Below, in pieces: positions 12,333-55,939 of a stretch of 64,000 bases of DNA (the stretch's first letter is position 1; each line of letters starts with the position of its first letter). Both the position numbers and the translations under genes were made by a program. This stretch comes from Octopus vulgaris (Eukaryota): NCBI GenBank assembly GCA_951406725.2, contig OX597837.1, positions 496,001-560,000 on the forward strand. Direction: 5' to 3'. The notes under the pieces are model-generated. The model ran no database searches and had not been told where the DNA came from. It was given only the letters and a program-made list of their open reading frames with translations.

Positions 12333-12403
<71 letters not shown>

Positions 12404-12647
12404 GGAACAAATTTTAAAATAGGATAAAATCTCAATAAGAAATTATCAGGTAGTTAGCGTGAAAAACCTCATAAGAGAAAAAATCTGTAAATTTTTTCAC
12501 TTGAAAATATCTATTTATATTATATAGAGGGCATTATTACACATAGATGCCACACGCTAGGAAGGACTTTTAAAGTCATAACTACCAAAAATAAACAAAT
12601 CGTACCGAATGCAATTCTGGAAGCGAGACATTTAAAAACAGAATTTA

Positions 12648-12711
12648 GTTCCAGATCACCTGTGATTTCGCAATTAACGTATTATCTACGTCTTTTGCTC
12701 TTCAGTGAAAC
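12648..12711 (-). ncRNA. Type I hammerhead ribozyme, canonical core
   Basis: gtttca CTGAAGA GCAA..ACGTA...TACGT..TTGC GAAA TCAC ag GTGA TC tggaac; AUC triplet. Confidence 0.85.
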
Positions 12712-13194
12712 GAATTCAAAATATATCATGAATGAACAAAACCAACATACCAGGCGGAACCAGACAGACAACCGTCGCCTCCATTGCAGCATATGAAAAT
12801 GTTTACCCCTCATATATTTATGTAAATGGCGGGCTTTTTCGAATTGCATTTCGGTGAGAAACGTGCTTCTTCGGAACAAATTTAAAAATAGGATAAAATC
12901 TTAATAAGAAATTATCAGGTAGTTAGCGTGAAAAACCTCATAAGAGAAAAAATCTGTAAATTTTTTCACTAGGAGGGACTTTTATGAGGTTTTTCACGCT
13001 AACTACCTGATAATTTCTTATTAAGATTTTATCCTATTTTTAAATTTGTTCCGAAGAAGAACGTTTCTTACCGAAAAGCAATTCGAAAAAGCCCGCCATT
13101 TACATAAATATATGAGGGGTGAACATTTTCATATGCTACGATATGGTTCCGCCTGGTATGTTGGTTTTGTTCATTCATGATATATTTTGAATTC

Positions 13195-13258
13195 GTTTCA
13201 CTGAAGAGCAAGAGACGTAGATAATACGTTAATTGAGAAATCCCAGGTGATCTGGAAC
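13195..13258 (+). ncRNA. Type I HHR, damaged copy
   Basis: Same motif as 12648-12711, but TTGC>TTGA breaks the stem II closing pair and TCAC>TCCC weakens stem III. Confidence 0.7.
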
Positions 13259-13402
13259 TAAATTCTGTTTTTAAATGTCTCGCTTCCAGAATTGTATTCG
13301 GTACGATTTGTTAATTTTTGGTAGTTATGACTTTAAAAGTCCCTACTAGCGTGTGGCATTTATGTGTAATAATGCCCTCTATATAATATAAATATATATA
13401 TA

Positions 13403-13801: not shown

Positions 13802-13834
<33 letters not shown>

Positions 13835-14097
13835 CAATTAAGGACAACTACTTAATAAGGAAAACTTAACAAGAAATTGTCAGGTAGATAGCGTAAAAAC
13901 CTCATAAGAGAAAAAATTTCGAAAATAATTATTTCTTATTGAACATATTAATTTATATATAGAGGGCATTATACATACATGCCAGAAGGCATTATACATA
14001 CATGCCAAACGCTAAGAGGGACAATTAGTCATTTCTACCAAAAATATTACTAATCCCACCGAATGCAATTTTTCAAAGTAAGACATTTAAAAAATAT

Positions 14098-14145
14098 AGA
14101 CCTGTATCACAGTGATTTCATACTTACGTACTCATCAGCAGGCCT
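14098..14145 (-). ncRNA. Type I hammerhead ribozyme (identical copies at 14578-14625 and 15058-15105)
   Basis: aggcctg CTGATGA GTAC gtaa GTAT GAAA TCAC t GTGA TA caggtct. Confidence 0.85.
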
Positions 14146-15287
14146 GAATGCATTATAAATAAACAACGACCCTGCCCCGCTTAAGTCGATCAGCTAACTG
14201 TTCAACATCAACGAAGCACATGGGTGAGTTTACATATATTACATCCGGTCAAATGGCAAACTTTTACGAATTGCATTTCGGGAGAGGAAAAGTTTTTTCG
14301 GAATAAAAATTTAGCAATTAAGGACAACTACTTAATAAGGAAAACTTAACAAGAAATTGTCAGGTAGATAGCGTAAAAACCTCATAAGAGAAAAAATTTC
14401 GAAAATAATTATTTCTTATTGAACATATTAATTTATATATAGAGGGCATTATACATACATGCCAGAAGGCATTATACATACATGCCAAACGCTAAGAGGG
14501 ACAATTAGTCATTTCTACCAAAAATATTACTAATCCCACCGAATGCAATTTTTCAAAGTAAGACATTTAAAAAATATAGACCTGTATCACAGTGATTTCA
14601 TACTTACGTACTCATCAGCAGGCCTGAATGCATTATAAATAAACAACGACCCTGCCCCGCTTAAGTCGATCAGCTAACTGTTCAACATCAACGAAGCACA
14701 TGGGTGAGTTTACATATATTACATCCGGTCAAATGGCAAACTTTTACGAATTGCATTTCGGGAGAGGAAAAGTTTTTTCGGAATAAAAATTTAGCAATTA
14801 AGGACAACTACTTAATAAGGAAAACTTAACAAGAAATTGTCAGGTAGATAGCGTAAAAACCTCATAAGAGAAAAAATTTCGAAAATAATTATTTCTTATT
14901 GAACATATTAATTTATATATAGAGGGCATTATACATACATGCCAGAAGGCATTATACATACATGCCAAACGCTAAGAGGGACAATTAGTCATTTCTACCA
15001 AAAATATTACTAATCCCACCGAATGCAATTTTTCAAAGTAAGACATTTAAAAAATATAGACCTGTATCACAGTGATTTCATACTTACGTACTCATCAGCA
15101 GGCCTGAATGCATTATAAATAAACTTTTATTCCGAAAAAACTTTTCCTCTCCCGAAATGCAATTCGTAAAAGTTTGCCATTTGACCGGATGTAATATATG
15201 TAAACTCACCCATGTGCTTCGTTGATGTTGAACAGTTAGCTGATCGACTTAAGCGGGGCAGGGTCGTTGTTTATTTATAATGCATTC

Positions 15288-15335
15288 AGGCCTGCTGATG
15301 AGTACGTAAGTATGAAATCACTGTGATACAGGTCT
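15288..15335 (+). ncRNA. Type I hammerhead ribozyme (identical copies at 15767-15814, 16247-16294, 16727-16774)
   Basis: 7-bp stem I aggcctg/caggtct, CUGAUGA core, stem II with GUAA tetraloop, GAAA, stem III, AUA triplet; predicted cut after 15328. Confidence 0.85.
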
Positions 15336-16907
15336 ATATTTTTTAAATGTCTTACTTTGAAAAATTGCATTCGGTGGGATTAGTAATATTTTTGGTAGAA
15401 ATGACTAATTGTCCCTCTTAGCGTTTGGCATGTATGTATAATGCCTTCTGGCATGTATGTATAATGCCCTCTATATATAAATTAATATGTTCAATAAGAA
15501 ATAATTATTTTCGAAATTTTTCTCTTATGAGGTTTTTACGCTATCTACCTGACAATTTCTTGTTAAGTTTTCCTTATTAAGTAGTTGTCCTTAATTGCTA
15601 AATTTTTATTCCGAAAAAACTTTTCCTCTCCCGAAATGCAATTCGTAAAAGTTTGCCATTTGACCGGATGTAATATATGTAAACTCACCCATGTGCTTCG
15701 TTGATGTTGAACAGTTAGCTGATCGACTTAAGCGGGGCAGGGTCGTTGTTTATTTATAATGCATTCAGGCCTGCTGATGAGTACGTAAGTATGAAATCAC
15801 TGTGATACAGGTCTATATTTTTTAAATGTCTTACTTTGAAAAATTGCATTCGGTGGGATTAGTAATATTTTTGGTAGAAATGACTAATTGTCCCTCTTAG
15901 CGTTTGGCATGTATGTATAATGCCTTCTGGCATGTATGTATAATGCCCTCTATATATAAATTAATATGTTCAATAAGAAATAATTATTTTCGAAATTTTT
16001 TCTCTTATGAGGTTTTTACGCTATCTACCTGACAATTTCTTGTTAAGTTTTCCTTATTAAGTAGTTGTCCTTAATTGCTAAATTTTTATTCCGAAAAAAC
16101 TTTTCCTCTCCCGAAATGCAATTCGTAAAAGTTTGCCATTTGACCGGATGTAATATATGTAAACTCACCCATGTGCTTCGTTGATGTTGAACAGTTAGCT
16201 GATCGACTTAAGCGGGGCAGGGTCGTTGTTTATTTATAATGCATTCAGGCCTGCTGATGAGTACGTAAGTATGAAATCACTGTGATACAGGTCTATATTT
16301 TTTAAATGTCTTACTTTGAAAAATTGCATTCGGTGGGATTAGTAATATTTTTGGTAGAAATGACTAATTGTCCCTCTTAGCGTTTGGCATGTATGTATAA
16401 TGCCTTCTGGCATGTATGTATAATGCCCTCTATATATAAATTAATATGTTCAATAAGAAATAATTATTTTCGAAATTTTTTCTCTTATGAGGTTTTTACG
16501 CTATCTACCTGACAATTTCTTGTTAAGTTTTCCTTATTAAGTAGTTGTCCTTAATTGCTAAATTTTTATTCCGAAAAAACTTTTCCTCTCCCGAAATGCA
16601 ATTCGTAAAAGTTTGCCATTTGACCGGATGTAATATATGTAAACTCACCCATGTGCTTCGTTGATGTTGAACAGTTAGATGATCGACTTAAGCGGGGCAG
16701 GGTCGTTGTTTATTTATAATGCATTCAGGCCTGCTGATGAGTACGTAAGTATGAAATCACTGTGATACAGGTCTATATTTTTTAAATGTCTTACTTTGAA
16801 AAATTGCATTCGGTGGGATTAGTAATATTTTTGGTAGAAATGACTAATTGTCCCTCTTAGCGTTTGGCATGTATGTATAATGCCTTCTGGCATGTATGTA
16901 TAATGCC

Positions 16908-16974
<67 letters not shown>

Positions 16975-22188: not shown

Positions 22189-25510
<3,322 letters not shown>

Positions 25511-28141: not shown

Positions 28142-30643
28142 CTGCTCAATCGAAGTCGACTCTCGGTTACTCGATGGATCAGTGTCCTCCAGTCAGTTCT
28201 ATCCTGGGCCGCTTCCTTCAGATTGGCCATGTCCATTCCGGTATCATTCTTGATGGTGTCAAGCCAGCGGGTTCTTGGCCGGCATCTTCCTCTCTTGCCA
28301 CTGACCATTCCGAGCATGATGTCCTTCTTCAGGGATTTTCTCCGCATAATATGACCGAAATATGTCAATCTATGCTCGGTGATTCTAGCGTCTAGGGACA
28401 GTTTCGGCCTGATTTCGTTAAGAACTTCTCCATTGGTGAGCCTCGCTGTCCATGGAATCCGTAAAAGTCTTCTCTAACTCCAAAGCTCGAATGCATTTAT
28501 TGTCTTATGGTCAGCTTTCTTTAGTGTCCAGGTCTCGCATCCATATTTTGCTACTGGGAAGACAATTGAATTCACCAATCTGCATTTGATAGTGAGTCTG
28601 ATGTCTCTACTCTTCCAGACCCTGCTCATGCTGACCATTGCCTCTCTGCCTAGTAGTATTCGACGTCTAATTTCTGGAGTGCAGTCACCATCTCGATTTA
28701 TTTTGGAGCCAAGGAAGATGAAATCATCAACCACTTCGATCTCTTCATTATCGATCTTGATACTGATGTTTGTTGTGGCTGCTGTTGACATGGTCTTCGT
28801 TTTCTTAACATTGAGGTACAGTCCAAATTTCTCACTCTCTTTCTTGACCAGCAGGACAAGATCCTCCAGATCCTTACTACTCTCCGCCAGCAGGGTTGTA
28901 TCGTCTGCATAGCGAAGGTTATTAATATTTCTTCCTCCAATCCTCACTCCAATGCTGCAATCCTCCAGGCCTGCATTCCTCATGACCTTTTCAGCGTATA
29001 TGTTGAAGGCTGCTGGTGACAGGATGCAACCTTGCCGGGTGCCTTTTCCAATCTCAAACCAATCAGTGTCGCCATATGCTGTCCGCACTGTAGCCTCTTG
29101 CTTTCGATAGAGTGATCTAATACGCTGGACAAGGTGTAAAGGTGTTCCCATTTCCTCCAGACATTTCCATAACTTGTCATGATCAATGCTGTCAAAGTCT
29201 TTGGAGTAATCGATGAAACATGTACAGCTTCTTTTGGTATTCTATTGCCCTTTCCATAATCCACCGTAGGTTGGCGATGTGATAGCGGGTGCCTCTTCCT
29301 TTGCTGAAACCAGCTTGCACCTCTGGCAATTCTCTCTCAATAGTTGTGTTCAGGCGTTTCTGGATGATTTTAAGGAGAATTTTGCTTACATGGGGGATCA
29401 GGGTGATGGTACGGTAGTTTGCGCAGTCCTTTTCTTTGGTATTGGGATGAAAACTGACCTCTTCCATTCCCTTGTCCACTTACAGGTTCACCGTATTCGT
29501 TGGCAAAGCGATGTTAGTGTTTTTGTTGGTATTGGCTTGTGTAATCTTAGTGGAATACCATCAGTACCTGGGGCTTTTCGGTTGGCCAGCTGTTTCATTA
29601 CCCATACCACCTCATCCTCCAGGATGTCTGGCTCCAGTTCCAGTTCCAGTGGCTTCTCTTCTGCATGTTCATCGAGGTTGTTCCCTGCGTACAACTGTTC
29701 AGTGTACTCTTTCCATCTTTTGCTAATCCCTTCTTGGTCATGCAGTTCTTCACCATTTCTCCCTCGGATGGTTGCTTGTCTGGCCATGAATGCTGTACGG
29801 GTCTTCTTTACATGTTGGTAAAGTTCTCTCATGTTCCCTTTCCTGTATGCCTCTTCTGCCCTTGCACATTCCTCATTCCAGTATTTCTCTTTGTCCTTCC
29901 TGGTGGCCTGTTGGAACATTGCATTCAGTCGCCGCACTTCATCCCTGCTTCTGGTCATCTTTGCTCTCCTTCTTTCTTCTGCTATTGCAATAGTCTCCTC
30001 CGAAATCCACTTTGCTGATCGTATGGGTTTCTTGTACAGTACATGTTTCTCTGCTGTTTCAACGACAATTTCCTTCACCTTCTCCCATATTTCTTCTGCT
30101 TCTTGATTCTCTTCGATGGCGAGCAGTTCGAAACGGTTTCTGATCTCAGCGGCATATGATGGACTGATCTTGTTGGTATCAAATTTCAGGCAAGCGGGTG
30201 GTCGCTTGACGCTGCAGAGTCGCATCTTGATCTTGGCAACCAGAACTTTATGGTCAGATTCACAGTCTGCCCCAGGGAACGTCTTCACAGCTTGGACTGA
30301 ACTCTTCCACTGTTGCTGACATAGGATGTAGTCGATTTGATTGCGGTACTGTCCACTTGGCGACGTCCAGGCGTATAGCCGTCTCCTTGGTTGCCGAAAC
30401 CAAGTATGTTTTGTTCTTGACAAAATTGGACCAGTCAGTCTCCTGCTTCATTCCGTTCTCCTAATCCAAATTTGCCAACAATGTCTGCTGCTGCCCTTTC
30501 TCCAATTTTGGCATTGAAATCTTCCAGAATATATACAATATCTGCTCGTGGTGTTTTCTCGATTGCTCCCTGAATTTCTGCATAGAATTGTTCAATCTCC
30601 TCTTCTTCGACGTCGGCATTCGGTGCGTAGATTTGTAGCAATG
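28141..30643 (-). mobile_element. RTE-clade LINE (APE C-terminal part plus RT), frameshifted
   Basis: EDFNAKIG, NQIDYIL, SDH, KAPGTDGIP, NYRTITL, QAGFSKGRGT, RQGCILSP, LRYADD across several frames. Confidence 0.92.
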
Positions 30644-40313: not shown

Positions 40314-40337
40314 ATATATATATATACATATATATAC

Positions 40338-40390
<53 letters not shown>

Positions 40391-40430
40391 GGTGGTGCTA
40401 TGTATATATATATATATGTATATATATATA

Positions 40431-40464
<34 letters not shown>

Positions 40465-40473
40465 GTATGTATA

Positions 40474-40516
<43 letters not shown>

Positions 40517-40554
40517 AATTAATGTAAATATGTATATATATATATATATGTATG

Positions 40555-40585
<31 letters not shown>

Positions 40586-40732
40586 ATGTATATGTATATA
40601 TATATATATATGTATGTATATGTATATATATGTATGTATGTATATATATATATATGTATGTATATGTATATATATGTATGTATATGTATATATATGTATG
40701 TATATATATATATGTATATATATATATGTATG

Positions 40733-40772
<40 letters not shown>

Positions 40773-40803
40773 TATATGTATGTATATATATGTATATATA
40801 TAT

Positions 40804-40837
<34 letters not shown>

Positions 40838-41077
40838 GTATGTATATATATATGTATATATATATATGTATGTATATATATGTATATATATATATGTATG
40901 TATATATATGTATATATATATATGTATGTATATATATGTATATATATATATGTATGTATATATATGCATATATATATGTATGTATATATATGTATATATA
41001 TATGTATGTATATATATGTATATATATATATGTATATATATATATATGTATATATATATGTATATATATATATGTAC

Positions 41078-41339
41078 GTTTAAATATTTGTTGCGCAAGA
41101 TTTTTTATGTCAAGTCGTGTGTTGAAACAGATATTGTTATATTTCGGAATGGTCATATTGCCAGTTTAGCCAATAAAAACACACGCACTATATATTTGGT
41201 GTTATTTTGCTTCAGTGATGTTTATTTTTTTACATTAATCTATATATACATTATGTATATATATATATATGTATGTGTATATGTGTATATATGTGTGTAT
41301 ATATATATATATGTATATATATGTATGTGTATATGTGTA

Positions 41340-41432
<93 letters not shown>

Positions 41433-41917
41433 TTCGATTAGTTTTATTATTATTATTATTACTAATATTGTTGTTATACATACATACAAGCATATGTAAT
41501 GATAATAATGGGTGGATGTAAACACATTAACAAAATTAGAACAAAAGCAACAACAACAAAGACAAAATACAAATTACAAGAATGTATATAAACAGAAGAT
41601 ACAAATATTACAGGCATCCCTCCCACACACACACTAAATAAACATAGACGCACATAGAGATATAAGCATGCGCAAATGAAGACATACAATAGAAATACAA
41701 AATGGCTGACGGTTAGTAAGGAGAGACACAAATAAGTGAGAAGAAAACAAAGGACCACTGATGCGGTCACAGGAGTGTGACGAAAGAACTTTGGCCGAAA
41801 TAAGATTAACATTAATGTAAAAAATAAATATCACTGAAGCAAAATAACACTAAATATATAGTGCGTGTGTTTTTATTGGCTAAACTGGCAATATGACCAT
41901 TCCGAAATATAACAATA
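41078..41917. mobile_element. PLE-like non-coding element with inverted terminal copies and an HHR variant
   Basis: 41133-41238 is the reverse complement of 41811-41917; HHR-like motif at 41752-41796. Confidence 0.7.
41752..41796 (+). ncRNA. HHR-like motif, core CUGAUGC (A9C)
   Basis: ggacca CTGATGC g GTCACA ggag TGTGAC GAAA G aa C TT tggcc. Confidence 0.5.
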
Positions 41918-43513
<1,596 letters not shown>

Positions 43514-45520
43514 TTTTCCTATGAAAAAGAAAGAGCAGACAAAGAAGCCTGGGCTATAGAAAACATAAAATCTAACCCCAGAGCTTTCTACAGGTATGCC
43601 AAAGAAACAGCTACAGTGCACTGTAGAATAGGGCCACTCCTCGAAAAGGATGGCACACATACAGGAAAACCAATGAGGGTAAGTGAAATACTGAATGAGC
43701 AATTCAAGAGTGTTTTCACTCCACCCCTTGGGCATCTCCAAATCACCAATCCAACTGACTTTTTTACCACTGCAGATATAAAATCAGAGGCGGCGACGAT
43801 AGATTACATCGATATAAAGGAAGACGATGTAACCAAGGCTATAGATGAAATGAAAACAGACTCAGCTACTGGCCCCGATGGATTCCCGGCAATCCTCCTA
43901 AAAGCATGTAAGAGAGTCCTAGCAAGACCACTGCAGTTCCTCTTTCAGAGCTTCCTTGCAGCTGGCAAACTTCCAGGAAAACTGAAGGAAGGTAAAATAT
44001 GCCCCATTCATAAAGGAGGTAGCAGAGCGGAAGCCAAGAACTATAGACCTATCTCTCTGACCTCACACATCAGCAAGGTCATTGAACGAATAGTCAAAAG
44101 GAAGCTGATCACCTTCCTTGAATAGAATGACTTGCTGCCCGACACCCAACATGGTTTCCGACCAGGGAGAAGCTGTTTAACTCAGCTCCTACAACACTAT
44201 GACTGGGTGCTGAAACGGCTGCTCAACCACTCAAATGTGGAAGTGATATATCTCGACTTTGCAAAGGCCTTTGATAAAGTCGATCATGGAATGATATGTC
44301 ACAAACTGCGTGATCTCAACATAGTTGGAAAACTGGGAGAATGGCTTCATGACTTTCTGAAGGATAGAAGTCAGGTGGTAGTAGCCAATGGGGCCACCTC
44401 CATTAACACACAAATAGTGAGCGGTGTTCCGCAGGGCACTGTTCTGGGACCACTACTGTTCATAATGGCCCTCTCAGACATGCCCTCAGCCACGCAGAGA
44501 GCCACGATCACAAGTTATGCAGATGATACAAAAGTTTCACAGGCAATACAGAACCCTGAGGACACTAAACACCTGCAATGTGAGCTGGACGAAATATACA
44601 AGTGGGCTGAAAAGAATAGCATGCAGTTCAATGCTGGAAAGTTTCAAGCTTTATACTATCAGCATGCAAAACTGAATGCAATACCCAATGAATACACTGG
44701 ACCCGGAGGGATTGCAATCCCAGAGGCACAATCAGTGCGTGACCTGGGTATTCACATGAGTGATGACGCGACCTTTCATGTACATGTTGCTAAACTGACA
44801 ATGAAATGTAGACGGCTGGCTGGATGGATTCTTAGAACCTTTAGAACAAGAGAACAAGAAACCATGATGGTCCTCTGGAAGACACTTGTCCTAAGCCACT
44901 TTGACTATTGCTCTCAGCTATGGTCACCATCCAGTGTCAAGTTGATCACAGAACTTGAGGCGATCCAACGAAGCTACACAAAGAAGATAGCCTCTATGCA
45001 GAATGTAAGCTACTGGGAAAGACTCAAGAGATTAAAATTATATTTCCTGGAGCGTAGGCGGGAAAGATATGCCATAATATACATCTGGAAGATCCTGGAG
45101 GGAAGTGTCCTGAACTTTGGCATCGAGAGTTACGCAAATGCCAGAACTGGGCGCCACTGCGTGGTGCCTAGGACTCCAAACCTGCCATCAAGATGTAGGA
45201 CAAGATTCTGTGATAGCCTGGGCTTCCGAGGCCCACAGCTCTTCAATATCCTCCCGAAGAACCTGAGAGACCTGCATGGGGTGGATACAGATGTCTTTAA
45301 AATGAAGCTGGATCTCTTCCTGTCAGGTGTCCCAGATGAACCAACTTCACGGCAGGAGGGGCAGATGAGGGCAGCTGCATCGAACTCTCTCATGCACCAA
45401 ATAGCAGTTGCTAGAAAGCCTCCATGAAGTGAAACCAAGTAGCAACACCAAATGGCGGTGCCCCAGCATGGCCACAGCTCATAAGCTGAAACTAGAATCA
45501 ATCAATCAATCAATCAATCA
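43514..45520 (+). mobile_element. 5'-truncated CR1-group LINE (RT), one in-frame stop
   Basis: [57 protein letters not shown]; TAG at 44123; ORF ends at 45427; (ATCA)n tail. Confidence 0.92.
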
Positions 45521-48545
<3,025 letters not shown>

Positions 48546-50668: not shown

Positions 50669-52620
50669 TAGCAAATACCCCGTCAGTGTAATTTATTATA
50701 ATGGTCTACTCCTGTGGACGGTTTAAGTTGAATGGTGAATTAACCCGCAGTTGGAAGTCGTCTCAAGCTGAGAAGCGTAAAATGTATAATTACCATTTTC
50801 GTTAGCAGTTTATGATATTGTATTAAGCAACTTTAGAAATGAATAATTTTTATTTTGAACACAGATTTGGCAGTTAGTAGTCAATGAAAATCCACGAAAA
50901 ATGTCGCAATTGCCGTAGACGTTGAAGCTTTTTGTATCGTGTATCGTGTGCTTATTTTTCAACCGCTTTGAAATTTTTCTTCAATGAAAGCCATGTGTGA
51001 TAAAGAAAAGCAAACATTTATAGCAAACACACAAATAAAATAAGGACATATACAAAAATAAATGTCAGAGCATGCTTATGAGCGAACAGCGTGCGTGAAG
51101 TAAGAAGGGTCATTGAAGGTAAATGTACGGTTAACAGTAATCAGGGAAATGAAGCAAAATATCAATGAAATGCTTGCAGGAAGTCTGATTGCTAAGGGCT
51201 ACAGTTTGGCGTAGATGTGAAGAATGCAATTGAGGAATAACTACGGTATGGCTACTTTGTTGACGACACTTTTAGTTTTTCCTTCAGGAGTATAGATGAA
51301 TAAGTTGTCTGGATGGTCAACTCTGGAACAACCGATGTAGAACTGCCCATGTTGAAAAGCACAACGTTCGAAGGTCCAATCCGAAAACTTTCAGTGACAG
51401 ACCTTGTGCTTTGTTAATTGTGATGGCGAAGCTGAGTTTGAGAGGAAACTGAAGTCTCTGCATAGGGTAGGAGCAGTCTGTTGGGGTTAGTGGAATTTTC
51501 GGAATGAAAACGGTCTCGTTTTTGCCGTGTCCTGTGATAATTTGGACCTCAATGACGTGGTCCATCATTTGTTTGACCACATGGCGAGTTCCATTGCACA
51601 GTGTGGGTGCGTTTAGATTGCGTAGGAGGATGTCACGGTAACCGACTTTTAAGTAAAGTTCACGGGGAGGGAGTCCTGGAGGATCGTGGGATTTGAGAAA
51701 GTATGTAACCTGATCGAGGTCGGTAACGATGTCAACTGATCTGTAACAATGTTCTTGAGAAGGTAGAATTCGTAGTTAAGAGTGTAGACAGCTGAATTTG
51801 TAGGTGCAAGAACAGACCTGCCGCGAAGCCAATTTGGTTTTATGTATTCCGTCGTAAGATTTGGGTAAACGGCAGACCATAAGTCATCAGGGCTGGAGAT
51901 CCGTTGTCTTCGAACGTAATTTGTCTAATGCCGATCTTAAGGAGCATTTCCGAAAACAGGGTTGTAGGAGTGATCTCATGTTGTTGGTGATTTGTTTCGA
52001 TTGGACATGCGACCAAAGGAAGGATTTTTAAGGTAGGAATTAAGGTCATCAGTGTGTGTTTCTTTGAGTATAATAGACAGTCTGTTGAAAATCTCCTGCA
52101 AGGAGTAGAGTCGCACCTCCAAAGATGTTGTTCGATCTAAGGTCTCTCATTATGGTATCAATTGCTTGTAAGAAACATCTGTTGATCGTGTAGATTTTAT
52201 TTGAAAAATGACTCTGTCCGATACTTTGGTATTGCACTTAAAACGCAAGGTATAGATTTCACACAATTACAGAATTCTATATTGATGTGTGCATGAAATG
52301 TTTTTTCAGAGCACCTTGTTGTGGGGTACGACCCACCGATTGTCAACCAAAAGAGTACCATTACACCGCTTCCTTGTTTTACTGAAATGTAACTTTCTAA
52401 AGAATATTCGTGTAACATCTTCACTCCTTCAAGTCGGAAGGCGAGTAAAACTCCAACTTCCTGTCCCTTTTCAACAAACCATCGTAGCATTTGAAAATCA
52501 TTCGTCTAGTTTTCACATGGAATGTTCTCTGTAATATTTTCTTATTCGGAGCACGATGTTGTTGGTTGTGTTTATGAGAAAATGCACGTATAAGAACATG
52601 CCATAGTGTTATCTAACAAG
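50668..52620 (-). mobile_element. Helitron, decayed RepHel with 3' terminus
   Basis: PIF1 motifs RLQFPLKLSFAITINKAQG, FGGATLLLAGDFQQ and LCNGTR; Rep motif FHAHINIEFC; minus-strand end gacggggtatttgCTAG|t at 50668. Confidence 0.85.
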
Positions 52621-53547: not shown

Positions 53548-55492
53548 CCATCCGAGCTGAGCAGGGGGGTTGATCCACAGGAGAACTGCGGTCCATAGAC
53601 AGCTTTCAGCGCCTCGTAGAATTTCTTCACGAGGAAGCCATCGCACGACTCCCCCAGGTGCCGACAAACCACGAGTTGGCTGTTCCCCCTGCAGTCGAGG
53701 AAGTGAGCAGAGCCATCAAAAAAATGTCCACCGGCAAAGCTCCAGGCTCTGACGCCATCCCTGCAGAGGTGTTCAAGTCGGGCGGCCCCACCATGATCAG
53801 TCAGCTCACCAGCCTGTTCCAGTCGATGTGGGACAGGGAACAACTCCCTCAAGATTTCCGGGACGCAACAATCGTCCACATTTATAAGCGGAAAGGAGAT
53901 CCGCAGTCCTGCGACAACCACCGAGGTATCTCCCTCTTGTCCATAGCAGGCAAGATCCTGGCCCGGGTCCTGCTTGACCGCCTTCTGGAACACTTGGAGC
54001 AAGGCCTTCTCCCTGAGAGCCAGTGTGGCTTCCGCGCGGGTCGAGGGACCACTGACATGATATTCGCCGCCCGCCAGCTCCAGGAGAAATGCATGGAGCA
54101 GCACCTTGACCTCTGCATGACCTTTGTTGACCTCACCAAGGCCTTTGATACAGTCAGTCGGGAGGGACTCTGGAAGGTCATGGGAAAATTTGGTTGCCCC
54201 AGCAAATTTATTGCAATTGTCCGCCAGTTCCACGACGGAATGACAGCCAGAGTCCTTGAAGACGGCAACTCATCTGAAGCCTTCCAGGTGACCAACGGAG
54301 TCAGGCAGGGCTGTGTCCTGGCCCCAACACTGTTCAGCATCATGTTCTCGGCAATGCTGTCCGACGCCTTTAGGGACTGCAAGTCCAGTATCGACATCAA
54401 GTACAGGACAGACGGGAAACTTTTCAACTCCAGAAGATTGCAGGCTGTCACAAAGGTGAGGGAGACAGTCGTCAGAGACTTTCTCTTTGCTGACGACTGC
54501 GCCCTTAATGCAATCAATGAGCAGGAGATGCAGCTCGAGATGGACAGGTTCTCATCAGCCTGTGACAACTTCGGTCTCACCATCAGTGCCAAGAAAACCG
54601 AAGTGATGTTTCAGCCAGCCCCCGGCAAACAATACCATGAGCATCAGATAAGGGTGAACGGACGGATCCTACGAGTGGTGGAAAACTTCACCTACCTGGG
54701 CAGCACTCTCTCCTGCAATGCCAACATAGATGCTGAAACCATCAACAGAATCTCCAAGGCAAGCAGCGCGTTTGGGAGACTGCGCAAGAAAGTCTGGGAG
54801 CGGAGAGGAATCAGCCTCAACACCAAGCTGAAAGTCTACCGGGCAGTCGTGCTTACCACCCTACTATACGGCTGCGAGACGTGGACTGCTTACCGAAGGC
54901 ACGAGCGCCAGATAAACCACTTCCATCTCAGGTGTCTTCGGAACCTCCTTCACATCCGCTGGCAGGACAAAGTCCCAGACACGGAAGTTCTGAAGCAGGC
55001 AGATCTCCCTAGCACCATCACAATCATGCGCAAGGCCCAGCTGAGATGGGCGGGCCACGTCTCCCGCATGTCCGACACTCGCATCCCAAAACAGCTCTTC
55101 TACGGTGAACTCGGCCAGGGCAGGCGCAAAGTCGGAGGGCAGAAGAAGCGCTACAAGGTCTCAAGGTCTCTCTCAAAGACTTCTCCATCGGGACAGAGAC
55201 CTGGGAGACACTTGCTGCCAACCGCTCATCCTGGCGCAGCGCAATCACCGTGGGAGCAGGGACAGCCGAGGAGGGACGGATTCGGTCAGCGGAGCAGAAA
55301 CGTCAGATGCGTAAAGCCAGAGCCGCCTGCACCAGTAGCACGGCCCCTACCCACTTCTGCCCCACCTGTGGGAGGGGCTTCCTTGCCCGGATTGGCCTCA
55401 TCAGCCACCTCCGGTCTCATGGCGGCAGTTCCATCATATGATATCAGTTGGTCATCTTCGAACCGAAGGACGAACATTATTATTATTATTAT
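53548..55492 (+). mobile_element. 5'-truncated and 5'-inverted RTE-clade LINE, young and GC-rich
   Basis: KAPGSDAIP, DNHRGISLL, ESQCGFRAGRGT, FVDLTKAFD, GVRQGCVLAP, LFADD; C-terminal CPTCGRGFLARIGLISHLRSH after a frameshift near 55160; (ATT)n tail; 53548-~53628 is inverted. Confidence 0.93.
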
Positions 55493-55939
55493 TATGTATA
55501 TATATATTTTTTTTGTATGTATGTATACATATACACGGGAATAGTTTTTCCTTGTAATGTGTGCGATTGAATACACGGCCATTTTCACGTTCAATGTCCT
55601 CCAATTAAAGATTCTTCGTTTTTAATTATCAGCGTGTTTATGATTAGTTTGGATGTATAAAAGTTTCTTAATTCTATTCAGAAGATAAGACAGCAAAGGC
55701 ATTGAAAGATTAATTCATTGAAAGATTAATCTTAGCAATATTATTCCCCCAAAAAAGAAATAGAAAGAACCACCAAAGAAATCGGAAAAATCTTCAGTAA
55801 AAAGGATTAGAATCGCTGTCTGTCGAGTTTTCTATAGAACACACACACACACACACTTATGCACTTACAAATATACGCAGACATAGATTTGCCTGTGTGT
55901 GTGTGTGTGAATAAGTGTGCACTTGTTTTTGTGTATGTG

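Follow-up and report, generated by a model that had tools for sequence, protein, structure and literature searches.

Two divergent arms of hammerhead-bearing units

We analyzed a 64,000-nucleotide window of the Octopus vulgaris genome (assembly GCA_951406725.2, contig OX597837.1, positions 496,001 to 560,000, forward strand), numbered from its first base. Between positions 13832 and 16907, this window holds an array of 480-bp units bearing hammerhead ribozyme motifs, which a first-pass annotation of the letters had read as a single tandem run of a retrozyme-like element. The exact 480-bp period was confirmed with Tandem Repeats Finder. Instead of one run, however, the program returned two, at 13832-15124 (2.7 copies, 100%) and 15120-16915 (3.7 copies, 99%), and BLAST with one unit matched the left one in minus and the right one in plus orientation. 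The array is two divergent arms, not a single tandem run, and the missed inversion turns out to be its most informative feature. We refer to the 480-bp family as family A, define its unit positions 1-480 as window 15608-16087, and call the two sites at which its arms end on the 3′ side X and Y. The array is composed as follows.

13804 to 13833, no strand: left (TA)n target flank
13832 to 15124, minus strand: left arm of 2.69 units, reading leftwards, with its 5′ end at unit position 141 and its 3′ end, at site Y (unit position 473), adjoining (TA)n
15120 to 15128, no strand: head-to-head junction of the two 5′-truncated arms, with 4-nt microhomology and one mismatch
15125 to 16907, plus strand: right arm of 3.71 units; 5′ end at unit position 477 (472 including microhomology), 3′ end at site X (unit position 340-354)
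15808 to 16287, plus strand: predicted 480-nt monomer, cut site to cut site, containing sites X (near 15961) and Y (near 16083)
16908 to 16973, no strand: right (TA)n target flank

The (TA)n flanks and the absence of an open reading frame (ORF) noted in the first-pass annotation both held, as no ORF in the unit or the arms exceeded 39 codons from an ATG (54 from stop to stop). Neither did unit or arms contain the reverse transcriptase (RT) and GIY-YIG ORF of an autonomous Penelope-like element. The arms consist of unit sequence only, without long terminal repeat (LTR) structure, and the unit has a GC content of 33%, below the 45% that serves as a criterion for retrozymes. The two arms are perfectly complementary over stretches of up to 1160 nt. 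We found no differences between the units of the left arm. Both of the differences reported earlier, the loss of a T in the T tract at about 15516-15521 and C>A at 16679, are real, but they are not the only ones: the junction carries its mismatch, and the 3′ end of the right arm meets (TA)n through TATATATAAAT microhomology and a 3-nt deletion beside the TA run.

Fixed 3′ ends, one of each per insertion

We searched the genome (2.80 Gb, 227 contigs) with the unit and examined the best-scoring 39 of 951 first-look candidates, that is, the window and 38 other places, a selection that over-represents long arrays. At least 190 unit matches, a lower bound rather than a copy number, were spread over many contigs at up to 100% identity; the unit is therefore not a chance sequence. 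Two arms were present at 31 of the 39 loci and were divergent at all 31, and (TA)n bordered both sides at 36 of the 39.

The 3′ outer ends were confined to two places, site X near unit position 340-360 and site Y near 473-477, with Y 122 nt further on. Among the two-armed loci, 30 of 31 paired one X end with one Y end, none had X+X or Y+Y, and the remaining locus (L049) was degraded. Were the site of each arm an independent, even choice, the chance of 30 mixed pairs out of 30 would be near 1e-9. The eight single-arm loci were evenly divided, four ending at X and four at Y.

In contrast to the fixed 3′ ends, the 5′ inner ends were scattered. Only 4 of 70 lay within 10 nt of the predicted cut site, compared with 3.1 expected, indicating no enrichment. 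The offsets between the 5′ ends of the two arms were uniform (Kolmogorov-Smirnov p 0.73, n=30); hence there is no fold-back signature, and fold-back palindromes were rejected on this ground. Inner junctions showed an overlap in 22 of 31 loci and a short insert in nine, and some inserts were copies of nearby sequence. Arms reached 8.4 units, and both arms exceeded one unit at 13 of 31 loci (counted by eye). We read the array as a single, recent insertion from a non-coding family that is dispersed in the genome; this family is real, very young, and belongs to the non-LTR retrozymes.

Haplotypes of the arms and the predicted cut site

We compared the arms of 29 two-armed loci after dropping L049 and L056, whose junctions are degraded or duplicated; L051 was also dropped from the variant counts. 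Substitutions peculiar to a locus recurred in every unit of both its arms, eight of them in L067, for example. Divergence over full units was 0.36% within a locus and 1.33% between loci. The arms were fully concordant at 17 of 20 informative loci, compared with 7.7% (maximum 28%) in 5000 random pairings.

The predicted cut site was free of indels in 140 passes, and the indels of family A cluster in homopolymers. Both observations led us to reject template jumping between cleaved linear monomers. RNA editing fixed in the copies was rejected as well, with 6 A>G and 14 T>C among 107 distinct variants and hence no excess.

The hammerhead motif and the predicted fold of the monomer

A complete type I hammerhead occurs in three consecutive units of the left arm and four of the right.

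14098 to 14145, minus strand: type I hammerhead motif, predicted cut 14105/14104
14578 to 14625, minus strand: type I hammerhead motif, predicted cut 14585/14584
15058 to 15105, minus strand: type I hammerhead motif, predicted cut 15065/15064
15288 to 15335, plus strand: type I hammerhead motif, predicted cut after 15328
15767 to 15814, plus strand: type I hammerhead motif, predicted cut after 15807, weak Rfam Hammerhead_HH9 match
16247 to 16294, plus strand: type I hammerhead motif, predicted cut after 16287
16727 to 16774, plus strand: type I hammerhead motif, predicted cut after 16767

All seven have the core CUGANGA ... GAAA ... UH in type I order with three helices. Stem II is 4 bp long with a GUAA loop and a G-U closing pair, and helix III is short and palindromic. 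The first-pass annotation had named the same parts (7-bp stem I, CUGAUGA, GUAA loop, GAAA, and AUA site), and its predicted cleavage positions after 15328 and 15807 agree with our motif mapping. It had also called the seven motifs identical, as all the 48-nt copies indeed are, without stating that three lie on the minus and four on the plus strand, so that the seven are never all sense in one transcript. The Rfam check that it proposed failed at the curated threshold, with no hammerhead match in the window at the gathering score; at E<=10, none was found over 4.9 kb. Given 111 bases, Rfam returned Hammerhead_HH9 as its sole match, at 18.8 bits (gathering 52) and E 0.012, with the core aligned in register.

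Across family A, 119 of 137 hammerheads were identical, and 13 more differed solely at the outer base of stem I. None of 33 locus-wide variants fell inside the 47-nt ribozyme, where about 3.2 were expected (p about 0.03); 7 of 87 private variants did.

Cut from site to site, the monomer is predicted to fold strongly on the sense strand (z score −7.4; antisense, −2.7), and its circular form gave a z score of −6.5. Of 25 locus-wide variants in predicted pairs, 11 keep pairing and 14 break it, and private variants keep it in 19 of 60 cases. We discarded covariation as support for this fold within family A, as the variants are too few to back it.

A second family obeys the same pairing rule

An older, separate insertion of a related hammerhead-bearing family, family B, lies 430 bp from the array.

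12401 to 13399, no strand: family B insertion, head-to-head, with (TA)n flanks
12401 to 12970, minus strand: family B arm ending at its own Y site
12982 to 13399, plus strand: family B arm ending at its own X site
12705 (minus strand) and 13201 (plus strand): family B hammerhead cores

Matches to Rfam microRNA families at 12897-13028 were rejected, as they are in fact the family B inverted repeat. The family B unit measures about 469-484 bp and is 73-91% like family A over parts of the unit. Its hammerhead has a CUGAAGA core, a long stem II, and an AUC site, with compensatory changes in stems I and II (by eye). Its X site aligns with that of family A, and its X-to-Y spacing is about 100 nt. 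From 3176 first-look candidates, 40 were scored and 39 fetched, two duplicates among them. Among the 16 loci with arms on opposite strands, 13 were X+Y, one end was unclear in three, and none was X+X or Y+Y (by eye). Family B arms do not exceed 1.8 units.

We also came across a third related family, family C (L154 7995-8380, minus strand, and L158-L169), that has the same helix III as family A and an AUA site. Many of its copies, drawn from 2039 candidates, are about 367 bp long with identical start and end positions between TA runs. By eye, compensatory pairs are present in the hammerheads of both families B and C. A short hammerhead-like repeat with a CUGAAGA core, from another abundant family, was seen beside several TA runs in L141, L146, and the flanks of L050 and L062.

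Penelope-like elements of the same genome

A search for GIY-YIG elements gave 6136 candidates, of which 150 were scored and 50 loci compared (30 short and 20 long, two places overlapping). Near-identical, intact elements encoding RT and GIY-YIG in a 781-amino-acid protein are present in the genome. The copy in L145 (2481-7272; also L138-L148) is an autonomous Penelope-like element, young and about 4.7 kb long, in which an upstream frame of 479 amino acids without a convincing Pfam match is followed by the 781-amino-acid RT and GIY-YIG frame. Compared with it, nine of ten other copies of the protein were 97-100% identical over the main match and one was 91% identical. A CX4CX2C linker is present in the protein, matching the type that PMC8557442 reports for the Neptune and Nematis clades. 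The 3′ region contains repeated GATTGG/TGACGTC motifs and a 38-nt tail; a pattern search found no canonical hammerhead in the L145 element.

The ends of these elements abut (TA)n at either of two sites, separated by 38 nt. All six inverted copies with both ends seen had one of each end; three were established from sequence and three from hit coordinates, with a query that favors tailed copies. One further copy had an unseen end, and a few internal inversions were left unclassed. Family B and the 781-amino-acid element therefore obey the same one-of-each rule as family A.

We also looked for the autonomous partner itself. A query with family C gave further short family C copies. The last 16 nt before the TA run at the Y end of family B resemble those at the tail end of the 781-amino-acid element. 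This weak likeness, which is the best of 70 AAAT-ending 16-mers in the element, comes from one of eight comparisons, and is lacking in family A, is a weak lead to a possible partner.

A further Penelope-like family (L149, L151, L154) is 34-46% identical to the 781-amino-acid protein. By eye, it has a hammerhead-like motif with a minimal palindromic helix III downstream of its GIY-YIG frame, near the 3′ end.

Relation to known elements

The class to which family A belongs, the non-LTR retrozymes, is already known. The accessible text on metazoan members (PMC7229834; Cervera and de la Pena 2020) covers coral, mussel (350-390 bp), and axolotl, with units of about 170-400 nt. Like these, family A is dispersed and non-coding, its tandem units are low in GC, every unit has a type I hammerhead whose helix III is short and palindromic, and the monomer is predicted to be highly folded. 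In that text, the retrozymes are described as tandem repeats, without the insertion junctions, inverted arms, and fixed priming sites of family A. Their circles were demonstrated experimentally, whereas the circle of family A is a prediction. The first-pass annotation regarded the family A unit as long for the class. At 480 nt it does exceed those units, yet the vertebrate non-LTR retrozymes, presented as Penelope derivatives by Li, Clavereau, and Pollet 2026 (bioRxiv 10.64898/2026.07.22.740005), have consensus lengths of 51-972 bp and mostly no more than seven units per family in the text available; a 480-bp unit is thus ordinary in the published range.

Family A shares with these vertebrate retrozymes, as the available preprint text portrays them, tandem arrays, a hammerhead per unit, and a link to Penelope. 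There the link consists of co-occurrence and of pseudo-LTR (pLTR) similarity and phylogeny, whereas for family A it is the insertion footprint; unlike in vertebrates, no pLTR similarity to family A was found among our 50 GIY-YIG loci. The words "tail" and "orientation" are absent from the available preprint text, and "inverted" occurs once, in a reference title.

According to the accessible parts of the sources, Penelope-like elements leave an inverted, 5′-truncated arm, often an extension on one end only, and a bias toward (TA)n (PMC8557442; PMC3846280). A purified Penelope-like protein of the anole nicks AT-rich DNA and extends both of its strands in vitro, starting at two internal RNA sites that delimit the tail (PMC11167929). 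Family A matches the insertions so described (PMC8557442; PMC3846280; PMC11167929) in its head-to-head arms, random 5′ ends, (TA)n targets, choice of two 3′ ends, extension that is often one-sided, more-than-unit copies, and hammerhead near the 3′ end. It differs from the endonuclease-bearing elements, as far as these are described there, in having no ORF and in that multimers can occur on both arms. The ends are separated by 122 nt in family A and by about 100 nt in family B, compared with the 30-40 nt given for published Penelope-like elements. One-of-each pairing was found in 30 of 30 family A loci, whereas the Penelope papers, in their available text, say just "often" or "optionally".

In L1 twin priming, the second priming site varies and there is hardly any overlap between the arms. 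Family A would be similar in that two primings on one RNA, from both target strands, would give an inverted 5′ arm and a join by microhomology. The differences are that both sites are fixed in family A and that both arms cover the same unit several times. We considered classical twin priming with abutting arms for the window insertion, whose left arm ends at unit position 473 and right arm starts at 472-477, and rejected it, as 473 is the fixed Y site. X arms started within 15 nt of the Y site in only 4 of 30 cases (1.9 expected), so we treated the abutment in the window as chance.

The giant squid genome paper, in its accessible text, merely counts 235 Rfam hammerheads (PMC6962438). We found no paper on cephalopod retrozymes, two-armed retrozyme insertions, or a counted one-of-each rule in a literature search that lay outside most subscription papers, Dfam, and Repbase.

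A proposed mechanism of insertion

The anatomy of the insertions, their dispersal, fixed ends, X+Y pairing, shared haplotypes, and unscarred cut sites can be read directly from the loci. The first-pass annotation had proposed a young, retrozyme-like, non-autonomous element tied to Penelope-like RTs. This proposal is supported, and the Penelope link is firmer than argued there because the insertion footprint is that of Penelope-like elements. We are confident that the array is a Penelope-mobilised retrozyme. We also think it rather probable that a Penelope-like RT/endonuclease uses one RNA monomer, probably a circle, as the template for priming from both strands of the cut target. Copying of a monomer circle has been proposed both for retrozymes and for Penelope-like elements (PMC7229834; PMC4209133), and for retrozymes a rolling reverse transcription by a Penelope-like partner (PMC7229834).

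In this mechanism, the array would be transcribed, and its hammerheads, probably paired as dimers via the palindromic helix III, would release monomers of 480 nt for a host ligase to circularise. The footprint suggests that a GIY-YIG endonuclease nicks both (TA)n strands and that one nick primes at X and the other at Y, aided by short TA/AAAT microhomology. Each RT would then copy 0.1 to 8 units, reading through the ribozyme site without a halt. Microhomology or a short templated patch would join the two cDNAs at their far ends, which are random in position, as the structure of the junctions indicates; the product would be a minus arm followed by a plus arm, one of them ending at X and the other at Y. 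Priming one RNA twice, once for each strand and site, would give exactly the observed arm layout with random inner ends, and a monomer circle is the simplest source of arms that exceed one unit, carry one haplotype, and show no scar. More tentatively, a dimeric Penelope-type enzyme could hold one hammerhead-made circle at two start sites, each tied to one strand, and roll from both simultaneously. If this were true, every insertion would record in the genome a programmed rolling-circle reverse transcription from two sides, and a single strand-coupled reaction, common to autonomous and parasitic elements, would produce both the "tail" and the head-to-head arms of Penelope insertions.

Several observations weigh against the proposed mechanism. 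The arms were discordant in 3 of the 20 informative loci (L031, L036, and L052), and the concordance of the others is somewhat inflated, since informative positions were chosen by within-locus sharing. Six of 36 loci had substitutions common to several but not all units, the same pattern of unit variants appeared on both arms in L040, L042, and L043, and in L052 (G000:C5:2039000-2048000) variants repeat every ~3 units along an arm of 7.7 units, pointing to a trimeric template or a later duplication. Partly shared substitutions are unexplained by one monomer circle without later exchange; together with the discordant arms, they need a multimeric template or later exchange. Selecting the best-scoring candidates biases the sample toward long arrays, and a later local expansion also predicts a shared haplotype. 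Among the 50 GIY-YIG loci, none held an autonomous element similar to the unit at the DNA level. The anole element used uncleaved RNA in vitro, did not depend on ribozyme cleavage, and showed no strand bias in its start site (PMC11167929).

The ribozyme adds to these difficulties. The hammerhead had been called intact, which holds for its complete core but less so for its predicted structure: in the ensemble predicted for the motif in isolation, the active fold makes up just 0.3%, pairing of the core with helix III gives an inactive fold that is more stable by 3 kcal/mol, and stem II closes with G-U. Because the active fold is so rare in the prediction, the motif may have to act as a dimer or with a protein in order to cleave. 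A self-duplex between two helix III copies is predicted at −10.1 kcal/mol. In the accessible text of PMC4209133, dimeric hammerheads are described for tandem repeats, and the unfavorable monomer fold and helix III duplex, both predictions only, would fit these.

The same data bear on a Penelope-type double priming on an uncleaved linear multimer, with a ribozyme that is slow or acts at another stage. The unfavorable monomer fold would suit it, as would the unit-specific variants on both arms in L040, L042, and L043, the periodic pattern of L052, the dispensability of cleavage for the anole element in vitro (PMC11167929), and the lack of in vitro cleavage in eight of nine Xenopus retrozyme dimers given in the available preprint text (bioRxiv 10.64898/2026.07.22.740005). 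However, random 5′ truncation of linear transcripts only shortens arrays, whereas arms reach 7-8 units of one haplotype; substitutions shared but unfixed are absent in 30 of 36 loci; the same units on both arms would require both RTs to read the identical stretch; and locus-wide variants leave the ribozyme core unchanged. We therefore regard a linear multimer as unlikely. Short Penelope-type insertions whose arms were lengthened later by tandem expansion at the DNA level, through unequal exchange, predict the same locus-wide haplotypes; the periodic variants of L052 and L060 resemble later exchange, and such expansion has been proposed for vertebrate retrozymes in the preprint text available (bioRxiv 10.64898/2026.07.22.740005). 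Yet with both arms above one unit in 13 of 31 loci and units ~99.6% alike, two early expansions per insertion would be needed, and the arms of the older family B, although a different family, are shorter and not longer. This makes later lengthening improbable.

Could the second arm instead come from self-priming by fold-back, or from a template switch onto the first cDNA? Self-priming was proposed, in the accessible text, for head-to-head Penelope junctions with palindromes (PMC3846280). In agreement with it, the shorter arm is nested in the longer at 27 of 30 loci (3 exceptions, 6.6 expected, p 0.064) and some junction inserts copy nearby sequence. We consider this origin highly improbable, as small loops are not in excess among the uniform 5′-end offsets, L046, L054, and L059 cannot be nested, the X arm is the longer one in 14 of 30 loci so that neither arm is consistently first, and a precise cut at the other fixed site would still be required for the second arm. 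Inverted repeats within TA runs are also difficult to assemble, and units adjacent to the junction contain more errors at L031, L047, and L056. Nevertheless, an assembly artefact from fold-back reads or collapsed repeats is scarcely credible, because the 39 loci differ in flanks, arm lengths, and haplotypes yet have the same two exact ends, and because the arms are not mirror images about the junction.

Priming of both strands on one RNA monomer bears on two questions: how animal retrozymes move, for which a circle and a Penelope-like RT have so far been proposed and not read from insertion sites, and why Penelope insertions have head-to-head arms and a one-sided tail. The template that family A offers is short (480 nt), very young, and free of ORFs, its two start sites are mapped, and their pairing follows a strict rule; the same genome holds intact RT and GIY-YIG elements with a matching footprint. 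A direct in vitro test is therefore possible. The value of family A lies in a clean insertion footprint that renders the proposed mechanism testable.

Other features of the window

Fragments of other mobile elements lie at 22690-23814 (plus strand), 28477-29241 (minus), 44126-45424 (plus), 51320-51775 (minus), and 53574-55541 (plus), with matches to three RVT_1 frames, one zf-RVT, and one Pif1 2B-domain. Two TA-rich microsatellite tracts of about 3 kb each occupy 40314-43514 and 45520-48545.

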